A stretch of 32,225 nt of DNA from Rhizaria sp. SCN 62-66. Taxonomy: Eukaryota. This document shows positions 2,190-25,497 of the stretch, in pieces. The position numbers were made by a program, and so were the translations under genes. The stretch is taken from contig MEDY01000343.1 of assembly GCA_001724265.1 (NCBI GenBank), positions 1 through 32,225 of the forward strand, read 5' to 3'. Position 1 is the first letter of the stretch. Every line of letters begins with the position of its first letter. Below the pieces are notes generated by a model, which saw nothing but the letters and a program-made list of their open reading frames with translations, did not search any database and was not told the DNA's origin.

Positions 2190-4047
2190 ATGCGCGTTTC
2201 GCTTCTCGCCGCGTGCGTGCTGGCCCTGGTGGCTGCGGCCTTTGCCGCGCCGTACTGGTCGTTGTCGGACTCGTACGAGCCCTCGTGCGCCAACTGGGAG
2301 AACGTCAAGGCCGCCTACGATGAGGTCATTGCTGCTGACCCCGTGAAGGACCGCGTCCGCAACAACTTCAAGATCACCTCCGTACGTCTCTAAAACAACT
2401 AGCAAGACTAAAACTAGGGTACACAATTCAATGCTTAGTGGTGTGTGTCTATTCTTTGGCTTCAGATTCTATATCTCATGAATGACACCTTTAAGTGTTC
2501 GTTCTCAATCTGAATCAACTTCATGTTTCTCTCTCATTGTTTGCCATGTCCCACAGGCGTACCACCGCATTGGCACTCTTTTCACCAAGCTCGTCGGTCT
2601 CTGGAAGGCCACCGAGGACTCCCCGCTTCCCGGCGAGTCTGGCTACCTCGCGTATCTTACCGCCCAGCCCCAGTCGTTCCCCACCCCTTGCACGCAGTCT
2701 CACTCTGCTGACTCTGACAACGCGGACGTTGGTGTTGATGCTGAGGCTGCGATTGAGGCCGCCGTCTCGTCTTCTCTGAGCGACGACGCGACGTTTGAGG
2801 AGCACCTCGCTGCTTTCCTCAACCCCAACACCAATTCTGAGACCCTTATCAACTCACGCTCATCCTCGTCCCGTGCTCACAGTCATGCTCACCCCTCGGT
2901 GGCGCTGGCTGCGAACGTGACGTCGACACAGGAGAACTGGCCCGGGCTCGCGGTGTGGGCGTCCAACACCGTCGGCTACGCTATCCGCAACAACATGCTC
3001 TCGTTCGACGTCGGCGCCATCCTCGCTGCGATCGACAAGGCGTACCCGCACATCATCCCTTCCGCCACGGCCGCGCAAATTAAGTCGTTGGTGAAGCTGG
3101 TCGAGGCGACGGTCTTCAAGACGCTGATGACGGAGACGTCGATCGGGCTCGGTAAGGGCAACCGCGACGTGTTCCACGACATCGGGTACTTCTTCTCTCT
3201 CTACGCGACCCACTTCTGCGACCAGCCCGCCTGGGACACTGCGCTGGCGCGATTCACCACATTCATCGCCAAGGTCGACCCCGTGACGCAGAAGGAGATG
3301 CGCACGGCCTTTGCGGCCACCTTCCAGGCGCACTACGCCACCGAGGCCGACCCGCTTCGGTTTGCCGAGGACGTCGAGGCGTCCCTGATCGAGACTGCTG
3401 ACGGTAGTGCCAGTCACGGCAAGATTAGCGTGAGCTCGGAGCAGCGCGAGGCATGGGCGCACAGCGTGATTGCGATGGGTGCGGCACCCCCGCGCGGCCG
3501 CCGGCTGACCGTGAAGGAGCGCGCCGAGCGCATGCTGCTGGGCAACATGCTCGTCGGCCTCCAGGAGCAGACGAACCTGCAGCAAGCCATCGAGGACTCG
3601 ATCCCTGCGCCCAGCGTGATCCCGTGGGGCGGCAAGAACATCACCATCAACTGGGGCTTTGTCTTCACCAAGGCGCTGATGACGCTGCAGTTCGGCAACG
3701 ACGCGCTGTTTGTCGGGCAGGATGTGAAGCCGCGCTCGTTTGACGGCAAGAACTTCGGCGTCCACATGCGCGCGCTGCAGTACAACGCGACCGCAGACGT
3801 GTACGCCTCCATGGGCGGCCGCGAGAGCGACTTGAAGGGGTCCGGCGCCGACGACTGGGTGAGTCTCAAGCACCGGATGCGGTTCATCGCGCCGCTGTTT
3901 CGCTCACGGCAGGATCTTGAGGAGATCACGTGCCACCCCTTCTCGGCGAAGCAACACGCAGCCATCTGGGACTCCAAGAGCAAGCTCCCCACCAGCGACG
4001 ACATCTGCGCCGGCAACTGCTGCACCAAGAACGGTGGACCTAAGTAA
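2190..4047 (+). CDS. Secreted uncharacterised protein, about 560 aa; exons 2190-2381 and 2557-4047; resembles a bacterial hypothetical family (possibly DUF2515-related)
   Basis: Starts with a signal peptide (MRVSLLAACVLALVAAAFA). A phase-0 intron 2382-2556 (GTACGT..CACAG) joins RNNFKITS|AYHRIG. Conserved-looking blocks: NWPGLAVWASNTVGYAIR, GNRDVFHDIG, LVGLQEQTNLQ, DWVSLKHRMRFIAPLFRSRQ. Ends in TAA. The family assignment is from memory, not from a search. Confidence 0.8.
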
Positions 4048-4500: not shown

Positions 4501-7500
4501 ATGAGCCTTCCACTGGCTCCCGACCACGTCGGCAGCATGTCGAGCATTCCAAACCTCCTTGCTGACGGGAATTTTGCCGACTGTGTCATTGTCGCCGGCG
4601 AGGGCCTCCCTGGCGTGACCCCCCTCAAGATACCCGCCCACACAGCCGTGCTCGCGCTCGTCTCGCGACACTTCCAGCGCGCGCTGTTCCCTGGCGCAGC
4701 GCTGCCCACGCTCGACCCGATTGCGTCGTTGCCTGCCGCAGCGCAGCGTGTGGTTGCGCCGTTGCTCGACGCTGTGCGCGCGCGTGCGTGCGCCTCGATC
4801 GTGATTGCCGACGGAGTTGCAACCGAGGCGACGGCGGCGGACAAAGCGATCGTCAGACTTGGAATCGTCGCGGGCGTCGCCGACAAGTCGCATGACGATG
4901 GCAAACGCCTGCCCTTTAGGTACACGCAGATGGTAAACGCTACGATTGATCCCACGAACACGCACGACAAGAGCAAACTGGCTGGTGATATTGCTGCTGC
5001 CGGGAAGACTACTGGCACCGCGCCGCTGCATCTCAACTTCTCCAAGGAGGCAAGCGCGAGCGCTGGCGGGGCTGACAAGGACGTCACCATCACGCCGGCA
5101 GACATCCGTGCGAACCCAACGATTGCACTGTACGACGTCGATCTGCTGTTGGCGAACCACGAAATCGTGTTGCACGCATTCCGCACGGACAACGACGTCA
5201 ACGTGCTGGAACCGATCTATCGCTACAGCAACAACAGCAACAACGCGGCGCACTCTTATTCAGCAGGACACGGGTCTTTTGGAACGCGTGATGGTACCGG
5301 TGCTCGGACGACGCGCGTCAGTGCATATGCTTAGCACGAAGAAGAAGACGGTGTGTCGTCACAGACAGCGCGTAAGACCATGACATTGGAGCAATACCTC
5401 TCTCAGTACGATAAGACCAACTCAACGACGACAGCGACGACTATGAAGACTTCACGAGATGTCGATGCTTCAGTCGCGACTACCTATGTTTCTAGTAGTC
5501 CAGCCATTGGCGCTGCCACAGAGGCGCAGTCCACGCTCCCGTCTCCGTCCGCGGAACTGTGTCTAGAGCGGTATCTGACCGATGCGGACCGCACTGCCGT
5601 GCGCCGCGCGTTTGTTGTCGCCGCGGCCCCTGGTGTTCAGCGCGCGGCCGCGTTCGCCGCGGTTAAGGCGACGGGCGACGCCGTGACGCGCCTGCGCTCG
5701 GGCGTGGGGCCGGCCGAAACCGAGGCCGCGACGGCGGGGCTAACCGCGGGCAGCGTCAGCATGGGCAAGGCGCGCGATGCGATGACTGTGACGGTCACGT
5801 GGCCCACCGACAAAGCGAGGACAGCTGCTTGTAGTGCGAATGGTCACGCAAAGAGTCAGAGTCCGACTCATAGTCAACCCGAGAACCCGTGGCCGTGGCA
5901 GCGTGAGTTTGCGACTGTGCATCTGCCGCTGCTTCCGCCAACGGTTTTGCCTCTGTTGTTGTCTCTCATTTATCAAACTCCCATCGTGAATCCTGCCAAC
6001 TCAACGAGTACGACGACGACAGCGGATCCGTTCGCGGACAGTGTCAACGGAGTCACCAGTCTTCCTCAAGCGGCGACCACTGCGCAGAATGTGGCAGTGA
6101 GTAAACGCTACGACGATAGCCCAGCCTCGTTTGCCCTCGCCGCCGCGGCAATGTTGAGCACGGCTGAGTCTGTTGACGAGAGCAGCAGCGCCGCCAGTGG
6201 CGACTCTGAGGATGTTTTGCCTGTGACTGGCCGTGAAGTTGCGCTTGCCTCTACGACGCTCGCAGCATTGCTCCCGCTCGCTCTCGTCCTCGATGCTGAA
6301 GTCCTGCAGCCTACAATAGCGGCCGCTCTGCTGACCGCGCTATCATTGCGCTCACTCCCGACTTATCTTGCATCAGCCCCGTTTTTCCCCGGCATTGCGC
6401 CCACTGTCATTGCCTTTGCGCGCACTCACGCGGAGCCGTTACTCGCCTCCGCAGCGGTCGAGCGCTTTCCGCCGCGCCTGATGCGCGCGCTCCTGGAAGA
6501 CGACGCACTCGCTGCGCCGGAGCTCGCATGCTTTAAGGCCCTCATGCGTTGGGCAGGCGCGCAACAGCTGCGCGCTGCCGTCTCAGCGCACGCGGCGGGC
6601 CCTTAGACCGCGGCCACAGTCGACGGGCGCGTGCGCGTGGACCTGTCGCTGCCAGCGCTGGCCCCGCTGCTGGCGCCGCTGCTGCCGTACGTGCGCTTCG
6701 CCGCGCTGTCGCCGACGGACCTGCTGCACACGCAGTTGGGCGGGACTGCGGATGAGGCCGCACTCAGCGTGTTGTTGCAGCACGCTTCGCTGGCGGTTGA
6801 CGGCTGCAACGAAGTGCCTGTTGTCGCGCGCACGCACCCAGACAGCGGCAGTAACCGCGATGAAACAAAGCAGGGTGGATGCGTTCACCAACGCGCAAAC
6901 GCACAATCTGGTGAAGACGGAGGACTGTTCGATGGCCCGCTGTTCACAAAACGTGGCAGCGCGACTGCGGCCCGCTCCACCCTGCCCGCGCGCACTGTCG
7001 CGCACTACGCGTCCCACGCGCACGGCATCATCGGCACAGTCTCCGCCCCGGTTGCGCTGCGCGCGCTGCCGCCCGAGCTCGCGGTCGCCGTCGACTGGCG
7101 TTGCCCAGTGCCGCTGACCGCCGCTGCGGCCGCCGCGCTACTCTACGGCCACCCGGCGCTGCCGCCGCCGCCCCCGGGCCTCTGGCGAGCTCGGCGCGGC
7201 GGCGGTTTGATTGCAGACGCAGACGCAGACGCAGACAACGGCGACTCTGTGGCTGCACCGCTGCACGGGCTCGACGGCTGGCTGCTCGAGGCGCGCGCGC
7301 GGGCTGGACTCCAGGCGCCGTGCCCGCTCTCAGGCGGCTCGCTGCGGCCTGCGCGCGCGGTGTGGGCGCAGGCGTGGTCTCAGTACATCGCCGCCTATCC
7401 GCAGCTCGCAGATACACTCGCGATGATGCTCACCGCAGCCCGGTCGAACCCGTCCAGCGCGGTCCCGCGCCCGCTTCCGCTCAGTCCTGCGGGCTGTTCA

Positions 7501-9777
7501 CCTCGCATTGCCGCGGTGCTGCCGCTGCCGGTGCGCGGCGGCGTGGGCGTGCCGGTGTGGGGCTGGGACGCCGCGCGCTGCACGGGCGCCGTGACCGTCA
7601 ACGTCGGCGGCGCAGGCGCGCGGTTTGTCCGTGTCGACAGGCGCCGCGGCGATGAGTTCAACATCACGCACAGTGTACTGCCGCTGGGCGTGCTGGACTG
7701 GACGCCGTACCTCACGCTCGTTGACTCGCCCGTCGCCGCAGACGTCATAGCCGCGCTGGGCCCGCGTGCCGTGTTTGAACCGGTGTTCTCGCGCGGCATC
7801 GTGCCGCCGCGCGCCGTCGACACCGCGCGCGGCTCCAGCGCCGTTTATTTCGCCGCCGAGATGGGCCAGCTCGAGTGGACGAAGCGCGTCGTTGTCAGCC
7901 TCGGCCGCGACCGCGTGCTGCTGCAGCCGCCGCTGCAGCTAGCCTTCGCGCCGTTGCCGCACGCCGTGGGCGCGCGCGTGCTGCGCGGCGTGCAGGCGTG
8001 GGAGCTTCTCGCACGCAACAAATGGGGCCGCGTGGCCGTGGACCGGTGGGGCGCGCGCGTGGGCTTGGCCAACGCGACGTGGCCCCCGCTGCGGCCGCTG
8101 CACACCACGGTTGGGGGCACGCTGCTCGACGACACGAACGAGCCCGTGGTGACGCGCGCATGGGTCTCGCACGGGTTCATAACGCTGCCGCTGGTGACTG
8201 CCGAGACCAGACACGGCGATCGCGCGCTTTCGCACACCGTGGAGCTTGCCAACGCGGACATGCCGGATGCGCCGCGCCCGTCGCGTCCGCGCCCCGGCGA
8301 CGGCAACAATGCAAACAACAACGACGACACCAACAACAATAATAACAATAACGTCAACGATGACGGCGATGATGGTCATGCTGGCGACGGTGTGAACAAT
8401 AACCCGGACGTTATCACGTCGCTTGGCGCGCAGTGGCGCCTGTACGACCAGGCGCAGCAACGCGTTCGCGAGCGCGCGCGCGTGCGGGACGGACTGCGGC
8501 AGCACGGCGCGTGGTCGCGCACGCATACGGTGCCCGTCTGGGCCGCGGCGCACCAAACGCACGTGCTGATTACACCGGGAGGTGCTGAGCCTGTGACGCG
8601 TGACCTCACTGCCGAGAGCGATCTACGCGCGATGCAACGTCCGAGCGCTGCTGCGACCGGTACTGGGTCCAGCAGGGCTGATGCGCACGCACCTGAGCAG
8701 GTGCCGACTGCCGCTGCGCTCGCAGTGGACGCCGCTGCGAACGCCGCGGCCAGCGCGTCCGTGCTGGCGAGCGGCAACGAGGCCCGTATCTGCAGCTTGC
8801 AGCAGCGGCTGCGCGAGCTCTGTGACGCGGCGAGTAACACGCGCCCCGACATTCTCTTGGCAACGCGCGACGGGGACACGTGGTACGCGCGCGCCTCGGC
8901 CATCATAGGCACTGTGAGCGAGCTTGAGCGGCTGGGATGTCCGCCGCGGACGATTGGCGGCGTGGGACTGCCCTGCTCCGAGTTGTCGTCGGTGCAGGTG
9001 TGCTTCGACGAGCCGCGCGGGCTGCTGCATCTGTCGACGTCGGTGCTGCTGCGGCCGGCGTACTCGCCCGCGCTGCTGGCGCTCGTGGCGACGCGGTACC
9101 GGCTCATCGCGGCCTACACCGACAAGCTCGAGCAGCTGTGCGACAGCCTCTTTTCGCACGAAGCCGTGGCCGCAGACGCGCTGCCCGCGCGCGAGTGGGA
9201 GGAAGTCGTGCGCCGCGGCAAGCTGCTACAGGCGCGCACGCTCTTTGCGCTCATCTCCAGCTCGCTCAGCGCCGACATGCAGCACCAGATGCTCGTGGGG
9301 CTGCGCGCGCGGTCTGTGACGCTGCGCGAGCAGATGAACGAGGTGCTCGCCGTGATGCGCTTTATTTACGCGCGCTTCTGGCGCAGCACGCGCGTCACCA
9401 CGATCCCCGTGCCGCAGCGCGCACTCGAGCTCAAGGCGCTCGACGCCGCGCTGGGCCGCCTCGCAGACCGCGCGAAGGCCGGGGTGTGGTTTCGCGCGCT
9501 TGAGGACGCGTGGCTGCACTCGCTCGCGCTCGGAACGCCGTGGACCGCGCACCCCGTGTGGGCGATCGTGCCCGCGCCGGTGCGCCGCGCAGTGCTGGGA
9601 CTGGCCGAGCAATATAAAGAGCGCGGGGGCGCGCCGCGGGACGTATTCACGCCGTTCGTCGGCGCGACATTCCATAATGATGTCATGAGGAGCGATAGTG
9701 TGATTGTGACGCTCAAGGCGATCCCGCTGACAGCCTTTATTGGATGGGAGTCCGTTGGGCTTTCTAACTTGACGTGA
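4501..9777 (+). CDS. Large BTB/POZ-BACK domain protein with a possible split SPRY-like C-terminus, about 1758 aa if the two in-frame TAG codons (5332-5334, 6604-6606) are translated
   Basis: ORFs 4501-5334, 5353-6606 and 6631-9777 share one frame and are separated only by single TAGs. The BTB start (FADCVIV..IPAHTAVLALVSRHFQRALF) is in ORF1 and its continuation (VHLPLLPPTVLPLLLSLIY) in ORF2. The BACK motif (LLEDDALAAPELACFKALMRW) in ORF2 continues as LLPYVRFAALSPTDLL in ORF3. Ends in TGA. Confidence 0.75.
5332..5334 (+). other. In-frame TAG (codon 278 of the BTB gene), candidate recoded codon
   Basis: GCA TAT GCT TAG CAC GAA GAA GAA GAC; the frame is open for 277 codons before and 423 after. 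Confidence 0.7.
6604..6606 (+). other. In-frame TAG (codon 702 of the BTB gene), inside the BACK domain, candidate recoded codon
   Basis: GCG GGC CCT TAG ACC GCG GCC; GC-rich, coding-like context with no polypyrimidine tract; the frame stays open for more than 1000 further codons. Confidence 0.75.
8305..8358 (+). repeat. Imperfect AAC/AAT trinucleotide tract encoding an Asn-rich insert (NNANNNDDTNNNNNNNVN)
   Basis: Read directly from the sequence, inside the BTB gene. Confidence 0.8.
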
Positions 9778-18549: not shown

Positions 18550-19652
18550 TCACTTATGGGGGAAGATAGCGCTCTTGACCGTGGCCCAAAGCGCGTCGCC
18601 ACTGCTGGCGTGGAGTTCCTTGTCGGAGAGCAGGCTCCGAAGGTATTCCTTCGAGGAGGCGTGCACGTGGGGGTCCGCGAGGTACCGCTCCGTGGTCTCG
18701 ACCACGAACTGGTGCACCAGGTCGCGCGTACGCTGGCTGTTTAAGTGCTCTGCAAGTCGCAATAATAGGGCGATTATACAAAGAATATAAGATCAAAATG
18801 AGACAGGATGTGTGCGCCTTAAGTACTAATGCAGCTTACACATACTGCCAAAGGATCATCTCCATAAACAATTTTTAACATCATTAAATTGAACATAAAG
18901 TAAGAGTTCAAGTTGCGTACCCTTAAGGAGCAAGTAGGTCGCCTCAACAACTTCAGGCTTCTCAAACGTGTTCTTGACGAGGGAAGCCAGCGCGGCAGAA
19001 GACACGGGGTCAACAGCAATCTCTACAACCAGATGCTTAAGATAGGCCATCGAGACAGGGTCCTGAACGACGTGCGCCAGGAGACCAACAATGGCATCCT
19101 ACAATGAAACAATGAGCAGAAAAAGAAAAGAAAAAAAACATAGCGAACAAGATCAAGTCAGAAATATATGACACAAAGTCAATTCGTAAAATATGAATGA
19201 AAAGTATCACATGTAAGTTTTATCGACACTTACCTGCGTCTCCTTCTGCTGCGAGAGGCGCGAGATGAACTCGATTGCAGTGGCCTGCACCTGGGGCTCG
19301 GTGAGGATCTTGCCACTGAGCTGCACCGCGCTCTCCTTGATGGCGTCGTCGTTGAGCGTGTTGGCCGTAACCTGCGTCGCCATCGTCTTGATCCCCGAGT
19401 CGATCTGGCGCCCGTATGTGAAGTAGATCGTCGCGCTCATTGTCGCCACCATCGCGAGGCCAGTCGTCACGAGCGTCACGAAGCGGAAGGAAAAGATCCA
19501 GTGCTTGATGGCCTCGATGATGTTGCGCGGGTTCCGCGACGACCGGCGCTTGCTGCCGGTGCCGCTACTGCCGCTGCTGTACGACTGCCCGCCGTACGCA
19601 CCGCCCCCGCCTGCGTTGGCTCCAGCGGTCCCGTCAGCGTTGTCACTGCTGC

Positions 19653-19685
<33 letters not shown>

Positions 19686-20394
19686 GTGCCATTGTGGCGT
19701 CTGCCATGGCGGCCGCGAAAGGGTCCGAGGTCGAGTAGTACGCGCGCAGCCACTCCATGCGCCCGCGCTCGGCCTCGGGGTCAGCGCCTGGCACGCGGTG
19801 CAGCGGCGCCAGGCGCACGCGCGCCGCGCGGGCGATCGACACGCTATCTCTCTCCTCGCCGTCCGACATCGACGCTTCTTCTTCCTCCGCGCGGCGCAGC
19901 GCGTCCACGTACCGGTGAAAATACACCTCCGCGAGCTCCGCGTTCGTCAGCGGCGCCGCGGCAAAGTCGAATGCGGGCGGCCGCAGCGCGTTCGGCGACG
20001 GCTGCGCGGCGTCGGCGGCGGCGCTGGCGGCGGAGTCGGAAGAGAAGGGAGGAACACGGCGGGCGTTCCAGACGTCTTTGTCCGCAAGGGTGGGGAAAAC
20101 AGGGGTAGCAAACAAATCATCAGGAACGGGGATGTTGGCTGCAGGAGTTGGCTGAACAGGCTCGGTGACGGGCCCAGGCTCCGGGACGGGCTTCGACCGG
20201 AACCAGGAGAAGAATGAAGACGTTGGCGCGTGCTAAACAGAAGCGACCGTCGGGACCAGAGTCGTTCGCGGTATGCGGACTAAGGGTGTGCCCACAGTGG
20301 AGAAATGTCGTTTTGCAATCTTCGTCAAGAGCACGGTAGACTGAGGAATGCGAGTGGGGAGCTGCCGAGAGGCAGTAACGATTGCCCCCCGCAT
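18550..20394 (-). CDS. Probable mitochondrial single-pass membrane protein of unknown function, about 512 aa if the TAG at 20233-20235 is translated; exons 19234-20394, 18921-19098, 18550-18749
   Basis: Presequence-like N-terminus (MRGAIVTASRQLPTRIPQSTVLLTKIAKRHFST), a hydrophobic segment (FVTLVTTGLAMVATMSATIYFTY) and amphipathic helical repeats ending GDALWATVKSAIF. Introns 19099-19233 (GTAAGT..TAG) and 18750-18920 (GTACGC..CAG) keep the frame. Ends in TGA. The start could alternatively be the in-frame ATG at 20460. Confidence 0.75.
19654..19683 (-). repeat. (AAC)10 microsatellite encoding poly-Asn
   Basis: Perfect (GTT)10 on the + strand, inside exon 1 of the membrane protein gene. Confidence 0.95.
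20233..20235 (-). other. In-frame TAG (codon 54 from the ATG at 20394), candidate recoded codon
   Basis: GCT TCT GTT TAG CAC GCG CCA joins ORF 20233-20460 and ORF 19207-20115 in the same frame. The next in-frame ATG is about 120 codons downstream. Confidence 0.6.
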
Positions 20395-24410: not shown

Positions 24411-25497
24411 TCAGTCAAACAGCGCCGCCTCGCGCGGGTCCTCTGTCATCTCACTGGGCACGGCACCGACCTTCGACAGGGCCCACTCAACGTCGTCCGC
24501 TGTCGTCTTGGCGCCGCAGAAGCCGTCGAGCGTGGCCCACTGCCGCATGGGCCGGCCGCGGCGGTATGCCATGACGACTGGACAGTCCCCCAGGGGAACT
24601 GACTGGAGCGCCGACGAGTGCGCCATCTTGACGAACTTGGTCGATGGGAAGCGGGTGCTGACAGCGGCCAGCAGCTCCATCAGCGCCTCGGACGCGGCGT
24701 GCGCGGGGCGGTACACGAGCAAAACGACGGGACCGTTCTGCGACGCCGCGGAGACCTCCTCAGCGAAGGTCTCGGGTGCGATTTCTACCATGAGCCCCGC
24801 GGCGCGCGCCGTGAGCGACGATGTCGCCAGCGAAGACGCGCCTGCGGAGCTCGCGGCGGCCGCGGCTGCGCGCTGCTTGAGCTCGGCGATGCGCGCGCGG
24901 CGCATGTCCTCGACCAGGCGCGCGACGGAGCCGTCGCCGGCGTTGTCGTCATCGGCGAACAGGCTGTCAGCGTCCGAGTCGGAGTCCGACTCGCTGCCCG
25001 CGTCGACAGGCGCCACGCGCTCGCCGTGCGTGTTCGAGGCGACGGCGCGGGCGGCCTCGTCGGCCTGGCGCGCGACGTGGCGCCACTCGCGGCCCGACGG
25101 CAGCTCCGCCTGGCCCGCGGAAGTCCGCGACACGTGCATCGCGTTCAGGCGGTCCGCCGAGGCCGCGGCCATCGTGGCCTCCAGCGCTGCCAGGCGCGCG
25201 GGGCGCGAGCGCGCATCCTGCATGCGCTGCACGTGCTCCAGGTGCAGTTTGTCGTGGTCAGGGTCCTTCTCGGGGGCCGTGTCGATGCCAGACTTGTACG
25301 CGAGCTCGTCCACCTCGGTGAACTTGTCTGCGCAGGGGATGCAACACGGCGAACGCAAAACAGTGAGTGATAGTGAATCAGCATAAATGAGTGCATATTA
25401 GCAATGGAATCCCCGAATACGTAAGTATAAAGTTATAGAGTAACGTACCGGACTCCCAGGGCTGCTCGTCGTCGATGTCTTGCCACGGAAGACTCAT
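24411..25497 (-). CDS. Phosducin-like protein (PhLP2/PDCL3-like, thioredoxin fold), about 321 aa; exons 25449-25497 and 24411-25327
   Basis: Phase-1 intron 25328-25448 (GTACGT..GCAG) gives MSLPWQDIDDEQPWESDKFTEVDELAYKSGI. Phosducin-type motifs: RRARIAELK, EEVSAAS..VVLLVY, RFPSTKFVK, DVEWALSKVGAVPSEMTEDPR. Ends in TGA. Confidence 0.85.

Follow-up and report, generated by a model that had tools for sequence, protein, structure and literature searches.

In-frame UAG codons, probably read as glutamate, in a BTB-BACK gene and other genes of a putative rhizarian flagellate

Introduction

Several nuclear genetic codes are known in which UAG alone has become a sense codon. It specifies Leu in the rhizarian exLh and Gln in Iotanema spirale (PMC5304391), and phyllopharyngean ciliates (Leu, Gln) and Scotinosphaera (Ser) are included in a 2024 list of such codes (PMC11687900). 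A total of 384 UAGs in 71 genes has been described for exLh, and 78–91% of genes are described as containing UAG in phyllopharyngean ciliates. Codes in which both UAA and UAG (UAR) specify Glu are covered by NCBI tables 30 and 31. They have been described in peritrich ciliates and Blastocrithidia (PMC10553269, PMC12153298). In Oligohymenophorea sp. PL0344, which has ten CUA tRNA genes, UAG is Glu, UAA is Lys and UGA is the sole stop (PMC10553269). Few nuclear codes give UAG a meaning different from that of UAA. The 2024 list gives Leu, Gln and Ser for UAG-only codes, and UAG-only Glu is absent from it (PMC11687900); no nuclear code combining UAG as Glu with UAA as a stop was found in the accessible, mostly non-subscription literature on protists, metagenome assemblies, Sainouroidea and Cercozoa. 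A UAG-only Glu code would be a new code table, outside the ciliates.

Here, we have analyzed a window (the whole stretch of DNA studied, 32,225 nucleotides) that constitutes an entire contig of a 34.9 Mb eukaryotic assembly of 714 contigs, DNA of which was found in bioreactor and wastewater runs. An initial annotation had joined three ORFs of this window, separated by two TAGs, into a single BTB-BACK gene and had proposed recoding rather than decay, without giving a residue. Our results support recoding, which appears to be genome-wide rather than a local readthrough, and Glu is the residue that fits best.

Results

The features of the BTB-BACK gene, together with the eRF1 locus discussed below, are listed in Table 1. 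The frame opened by the ATG at 4501 contains no frameshift and no stop other than the two TAGs through 1,758 codons, and the earlier statement that no indel, TGA or TAA interrupts these 5.3 kb is correct as far as the terminal TGA. The motifs quoted in the initial annotation were also found where it had placed them, LLPYVRF starting 25 codons past TAG2. Its central proposal, that the three ORFs encode one protein, was supported by P0247, an 836-aa orthologue encoded by a single ORF, which is collinear across both TAGs and matches aa 12-96, 465-495, 610-761 and 869-934 in that order, the third of these matches spanning TAG2. A search of 1.84 billion representatives returned seven matches: two fragments of the gene itself, P0247, two proteins similar to its C-terminal part, and P0250 and P0251, which are BTB-BACK proteins of the ordinary type.

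Table 1 Features of the BTB-BACK gene in the window and the eRF1 locus of the same genome
Feature	Position	Strand	Basis
BTB-BACK gene, 1,758 codons, two internal TAGs, intronless as far as seen	4501..9777	+	Sequence; P0247 collinear; no GT-AG joint in run contigs
BTB domain, first half, aa 19-62	4555..4686	+	Pfam PF00651 aa 20-62, weak (E 0.09); alignment with P0247, P0250, P0251
TAG1, codon 278, within the ~400-aa insertion splitting BTB; likely Glu	5332..5334	+	Sequence; same in run X4 contig 5138-5473
BTB domain, second part, aa 465-494, ...LPPTVLPLLLSLIY	5893..5982	+	Aligned with the matching helix of P0250/P0251, plus P0247
BACK core, aa 635-690	6403..6570	+	Pfam PF07707 E 8.5e-4; P0247 63% identity over aa 610-761
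TAG2, codon 702, variable loop after BACK; likely Glu	6604..6606	+	Sequence; same in run X4 contig 6193-6966; P0247 continuous across
Post-BACK helices including LLPYVRF, aa 713-761	6637..6783	+	Alignment with P0247, P0250, P0251
Conserved C-terminal region, aa 1324-1756, no known family	8470..9768	+	P0249 32% identity; zero Pfam hits
TGA, true stop	9775..9777	+	Homology to P0249 reaches aa 1756; GC drops beyond
eRF1 with UAG in its own stop-recognition domain, possible feedback site	L002 / L098, G000:C63:103370-103699	minus	

It had also been claimed that the BTB and BACK domains each straddle a TAG. This is true only of the alignment with P0247, P0250 and P0251, in which the first half of BTB lies 5' of TAG1 and the remainder follows an insertion of about 400 aa; TAG1 is located inside this insertion, and TAG2 in the charged and variable loop that separates BACK from the LLPxVRF helix. 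The Pfam hits themselves, both under the cut-off, cross neither TAG. The order of BTB followed by BACK could be recognized from these weak hits and the alignment. The claim that the downstream ORFs have no starting ATG should be modified for the middle ORF, which has an ATG at 5380, 16 codons in; gene callers start P0246 there, and the gene is already broken into fragments (P0245 and P0246) in public protein sets.

In domain order and in conserved columns through BTB, BACK and LLPxVRF, the protein resembles BTB-BACK proteins (PF00651 plus PF07707), whereas in ordinary members BTB is not split by an insertion and here the C-terminal ~1,000 aa contain no Pfam family. From knowledge of the family we take the 1,758-aa product to be most likely a predicted Cullin-3 substrate adaptor with long low-complexity insertions, and the conserved C-terminal region would be the presumed substrate-binding part. 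Atlas matches of the latter to DHC_N1/WASH4 (recognition 1450) were too weak for use. The region downstream of TAG2 looks constrained, as judged from homology and strain variation: homologues match aa 1055-1229 and aa 1324-1756, both after TAG2, and among seven coding strain differences in the run contigs, each seen in single low-depth contigs, the five synonymous ones all fell among the six located after TAG2. The P0247 residue facing TAG2 was considered as a clue to the amino acid and found uninformative because it adjoins an alignment gap.

Both TAGs were present and unchanged in contigs of run X4 (another year and study, probably DNA) that bridge them, this run being an independent sample. 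Contigs of the polyA run X5 covered parts of all three ORFs and bridged neither TAG, and runs X6 and X8 yielded only short pieces. With joints having sides below 30 and non-GT-AG ends disregarded, no GT-AG joint was seen in the run contigs over the gene, the RNA contigs including neither TAG.

As for the surroundings of the gene, a 521-codon ORF with a TAA end and zero Pfam hits is located just upstream (2482-4047, plus strand), and 10219-32225 holds unremarkable genes, for ETF-QO, ATP synthase delta, RPN2, purple acid phosphatase and a DENN protein, as well as two ORFs that Pfam did not clearly match (19207-20232 and 24411-25397, minus strand). The coding parts of ETF-QO, RPN2, purple acid phosphatase and the DENN gene were TAG-free.

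A census of stop codons was carried out using a Viterbi parse trained on stop-free ORFs with an equal penalty for the three stops, and covered the window and forty 10-kb stretches at a fixed offset (the random part) as well as targeted loci. The 432,225 bases of the random part comprised 110,947 interior codons, and 21 TAGs, two of them being TAG1 and TAG2 of the window, and not a single TAA or TGA were found inside its coding segments. The whole census including targeted loci (193,985 codons) gave 34 TAGs and six TAAs as raw parse counts; the 34 TAGs include at least one probable mis-parse (L082). Segment ends gave the opposite picture in this random sample of the 35 Mb genome. The 143 ends with a nearby in-frame stop comprised 78 TAA, 63 TGA and 2 TAG, and both TAG ends sit just behind GTACG splice donors, that is, in introns. 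Some TAA and TGA ends are also intron stops, and true gene ends are therefore fewer than 141. When only stops within 6 nt of the segment end were counted, 58 TAA, 36 TGA and 1 TAG remained. The scarcity of TAG at ends was significant even supposing that 10% of genes end in TAG (p = 5e-4). Within the sample, UAG did not behave as a terminator, and UAA and UGA still did, considering the 141 ends and the absence of internal UAA and UGA from the random codons, with the six TAAs of the targeted loci set beside them. The frequency of TAG was about 1 per 5,300 codons, or about 0.5% of Glu codons (21 versus 3,628 GAG and 690 GAA). We consider it nearly certain that UAG is a sense codon in this host.

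Inspection of individual families showed that TAG inside a domain match must be interpreted with care. Among 142 kinase matches, TAG was the sole stop in nine, TAA in one and TGA in none, and stops of more than one kind occurred in four; five of the nine lone TAGs were coding and four were intron acceptors. Over kinases, dyneins, DEAD, kinesin and SNF2, 9 of the 14 inspected 'TAG-only' Pfam hits were intron acceptors, and the TAG-only hits in DEAD, kinesin and SNF2 were of this kind. Dynein heavy chains were likewise rejected as a source of TAG columns: in ten loci with ~36,000 codons each TAG was at a segment edge or intron-like, and coding TAG was absent. No internal stop was found in WD40, ABC and AAA matches. 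Three paralogous kinases with a helical-repeat tail (L092, L093 and L094) contain five coding TAGs, a density far above the genome average.

In-frame UAGs were identified in two conserved single-copy genes, eRF1 and Thg1, and also in UBC and kinases. In eRF1, the TAG is in the middle of an exon and corresponds, without an alignment gap, to human E107; this column contains E in 108, D in 8, V in 1 and Q in 0 of 117 homologues. In Thg1, it is at E77, on the E of the SDE motif, which was Glu in all four PDB sequences and in the one database match, the homologue search having returned only that protein. E77 is described as one of three active-site carboxylates (PMC6471195). L155:2-1597 (G000:C681) is an ORF in which a TAG-containing ubiquitin-like domain is fused with a Peptidase_S74 chaperone domain, a combination that is unusual for a eukaryote.

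The N domain of eRF1 is itself changed. The substitutions T32S, G57S, T58K and L124M were observed, giving GSS in place of GTS and S-KASNIKS in place of G-TASNIKS. All 117 homologues have T32 and G57, both of which are Ser in the host. In the nearest relative, P0004 (84% identity), T32 and G57 are kept, T58K is shared and Val occupies position 107. T32 has been described to hydrogen-bond the G of UAG and to be replaced by Gly in Iotanema (PMC5304391), and Tetrahymena and Blepharisma likewise have K at the start of TASNIKS (PMC4695839, Table 2). T32S retains the hydroxyl, and its effect on UAG reading is only a predicted one. A metagenome scan with the eRF1 of the relative returned four matches, of which three were distant eRF1s and one was a contig that carries the host gene without any difference, TAG included; the latter may come from the same source and is therefore not taken as independent. 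The code of the relative or relatives behind P0004, P0122 and P0247 would date the change.

A cognate tRNA(CUA) was present at the gene level. A pattern search gave three candidates, one of which was called by ARAGORN as a 73-nt tRNA with anticodon CUA. The gene is single-copy, lies among protein genes on contig C84, folds into a normal cloverleaf and is followed by a T-run. Compared with 30 other recovered tRNA sequences, a partial set, it is identical to Glu(CUC) at 47 of 73 positions and to Glu(UUC) at 40, other tRNAs reaching at most 39 and Gln 29-33, and the first pairs of its acceptor stem are those of tRNA-Glu. We found eight genes for Glu(CUC) and one for Glu(UUC). A search for intronless short-arm tRNAs with UUA or UCA anticodons identified neither in the 20 candidates checked, only Lys(UUU) and Gly(UCC); the wider tRNA pattern gave 31 matches versus 38 in a reversed control. 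The combination of sense UAA with a UUA tRNA, as expected for UAR = Glu codes or the PL0344 type, was not observed in the census and among these candidates.

To compare residues, those one anticodon change from CUA were scored by Pfam bits at in-domain TAG sites, leaving out one kinase-paralogue site in L092 and two Sel1-like sites without a Pfam hit. Summed over seven in-domain sites, the scores were E 502.4, Q 500.6, K 500.3, S 495.6, Y 489.5, L 487.4 and W 484.8. The Thg1 site gave E 88.8, D 85.7, Q 84.9 and K 84.7, and the CIMR site E 36.5, Q 36.2 and K 36.9; over the nine sites together, E was ahead of Q by 6.0 bits and of K by 5.8. Leu, Ser, Tyr and Trp scored 7-18 bits under Glu at the seven sites and 4-6 at Thg1, which does not agree with any of them. 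The Glu call rests chiefly on two columns and the tRNA, the other seven sites barely separating E, Q and K.

It is rather unlikely, in our opinion, that UAG is a sense codon for Gln, or is read as a mixture of Glu and Gln because GlnRS partly charges a tRNA that stems from tRNA-Glu and carries U35. Such partial charging is known from bacterial amber suppressors. Some of the weak sites do lean to Gln: a CAG of the host's own ubiquitin is replaced by TAG in a ubiquitin-like copy, 3 of the 34 TAGs are in a polyQ context (compared with 0.7% of GAG and 15% of CAG codons), and Q is less than 2 bits behind E over the seven sites. Opposite four TAG sites, kinase paralogues have three D, two Q and one T, other pairings being poorly aligned. 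UAG-only Gln codes are moreover known (PMC5304391, PMC11687900). However, the residue at the conserved sites is Glu and the tRNA resembles tRNA-Glu, in contrast with the Iotanema type: Q does not occur at all in the eRF1 column, the Thg1 SDE site prefers E by 3.9 bits, and the identities of the tRNA are far higher with Glu(CUC) than with Gln. As CAG to TAG is a transition and Glu would be tolerable in unconstrained tracts, we read the Gln-leaning sites as CAG-to-TAG transitions tolerated at loose sites.

Discussion

On the basis of these results, we consider it likely that the host uses a nuclear code with UAG as Glu and UAA and UGA as stops, and that both TAGs of the BTB-BACK gene would be translated as Glu, because in-frame TAGs occur in single-copy essential genes, a tRNA(CUA) is present and no sampled gene ends in TAG. 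Like the described UAG-only codes, it would combine a sense UAG and a CUA tRNA with UAA and UGA as the sole terminators, and eRF1 T32 is changed both in Iotanema and in the host; it differs from them in that the residue is Glu, UAG is far rarer and coding DNA is GC-rich. In PL0344, UAG is also read as Glu by CUA tRNAs resembling tRNA-Glu, whereas the host, in which a single CUA gene was identified, has UAA as its most frequent stop and is not placed with ciliates by the RPN2 tree. The UAR = Glu codes share a tRNA-Glu(CUA) derived from a Glu tRNA, but peritrichs and Blastocrithidia recode UAA too, and Blastocrithidia is described as recoding UGA also and as having no UPF1 or UPF2, whereas UPF1 is present in the host (G000:C4:51399-51851). 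UPF2 was not found in our search, a result that is uninformative because the control also matched nowhere.

With regard to mechanism, a copy of tRNA-Glu(CUC) might have given rise to the CUA tRNA, which would be charged with Glu, and the altered eRF1 would read UAG poorly, yet terminate at UAA and UGA. UAG would stay rare because one tRNA gene faces at least eight for GAG and because the genome prefers G/C-ending codons. AT pressure is not an obvious driver, since the coding DNA is GC-rich. A more specific scenario, which we hold to be doubtful, is that codon capture has been caught early, in which case eRF1 would have partly released UAG, a young tRNA-Glu(CUA) would compete for it, and the UAG in the stop-reading domain of eRF1 itself might serve as a feedback switch. 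The frameshift of bacterial RF2 is such a switch and provides the model. Autoregulation of eRF1 through readthrough and NMD has been described in plants (PMC5397192).

Among explanations in which UAG has no meaning as a sense codon, it appears very unlikely that short in-frame introns have their 3' splice sites at the TAGs, the mRNA being stop-free. Both TAGs do occur as CTTAG, an 18-nt GT..AG would fit ahead of TAG1, and TAG is a common acceptor in this host, as the domain hits inspected above illustrate. Nevertheless, the real introns are AT-rich and ~100 nt or longer, the flanks of both TAGs are coding-like, and eRF1, Thg1, UBC, kinase and ubiquitin sequences align through their TAGs without a gap; the lack of GT-AG joints in the run contigs points in the same direction, though the RNA contigs do not include the TAG sites. 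That the code is standard, with the TAGs arising from nonsense mutation, in pseudogenes or as G-to-T sequencing artefacts, is harder still to credit. TAG is rare, and GAG-to-TAG errors would land on Glu by construction, but the same process should have produced about four GAA-to-TAA changes given the numbers of GAA and GAG, and none was seen, nor was any GGA-to-TGA change; besides, run X4 shows both TAGs again, neither eRF1 nor Thg1 has a second copy, no TAG-ending gene was found in the sample and a CUA tRNA gene exists, and the census together with run X4 largely refutes this possibility. Finally, mending of the stops by RNA editing (A-to-I giving Trp or U-to-C giving Gln), both kinds of which are known in other eukaryotes and for which the RNA contigs do not include the TAG sites, has a negligible chance of being correct, as Trp scored lowest of the seven residues and editing would leave the CUA tRNA and the missing TAG terminators unexplained.

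A codon used about once per 5,300 codons is easily missed, and this suggests that more such codes are hidden as 'broken genes' in protist assemblies. The combination of one tRNA and an eRF1 with T32S/G57S/T58K would be a minimal testable kit for discrimination between UAG and UAA by a release factor, which also bears on eukaryotic amber suppression. As the host recurs in wastewater runs, it can be sampled.

The host is a long-branch flagellate, putatively rhizarian. A flagellate is suggested by dyneins of axonemal type, and an aerobic mitochondrion by ETF-QO and ATP synthase delta. Its closest named relatives show at most ~46% identity for RPN2 and ~72% for eRF1. In an RPN2 tree (LG+C20, 26 rows), the host was located on a long branch in a clade with Amorphochlora (SH-aLRT 99), and in a FastTree analysis of 55 rows it fell outside the Amorphochlora clade; both placements involve one gene with skewed composition and one named rhizarian, the chlorarachniophyte Amorphochlora. 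The 18S looks divergent by eye, and ubiquitin starts with MS-MQIFV (L156-L162), is off the usual sequence at many sites and has several monomeric copies ending in GGHPQ or GGHSQ; head-to-tail polyubiquitin junctions were looked for and none was found. A very divergent 18S and a polyubiquitin insertion have been described for helkesid Cercozoa, the group of exLh (PMC6133090). The divergent 18S and the MS- start of ubiquitin would fit this group (Helkesida/Sainouroidea), which we offer as a lead only. If the host were a sainouroid, the lineage would have reassigned UAG to Leu in exLh and, in a separate event, to Glu in the host, which would make it a natural experiment on the order 'release first, capture later'. 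The 18S match itself (L114:1500-5945, G000:C706), putatively of the host, spans ~4.4 kb with a very divergent core, and has several insertions that are group I intron-like by eye, the first of which holds an endonuclease-like ORF.
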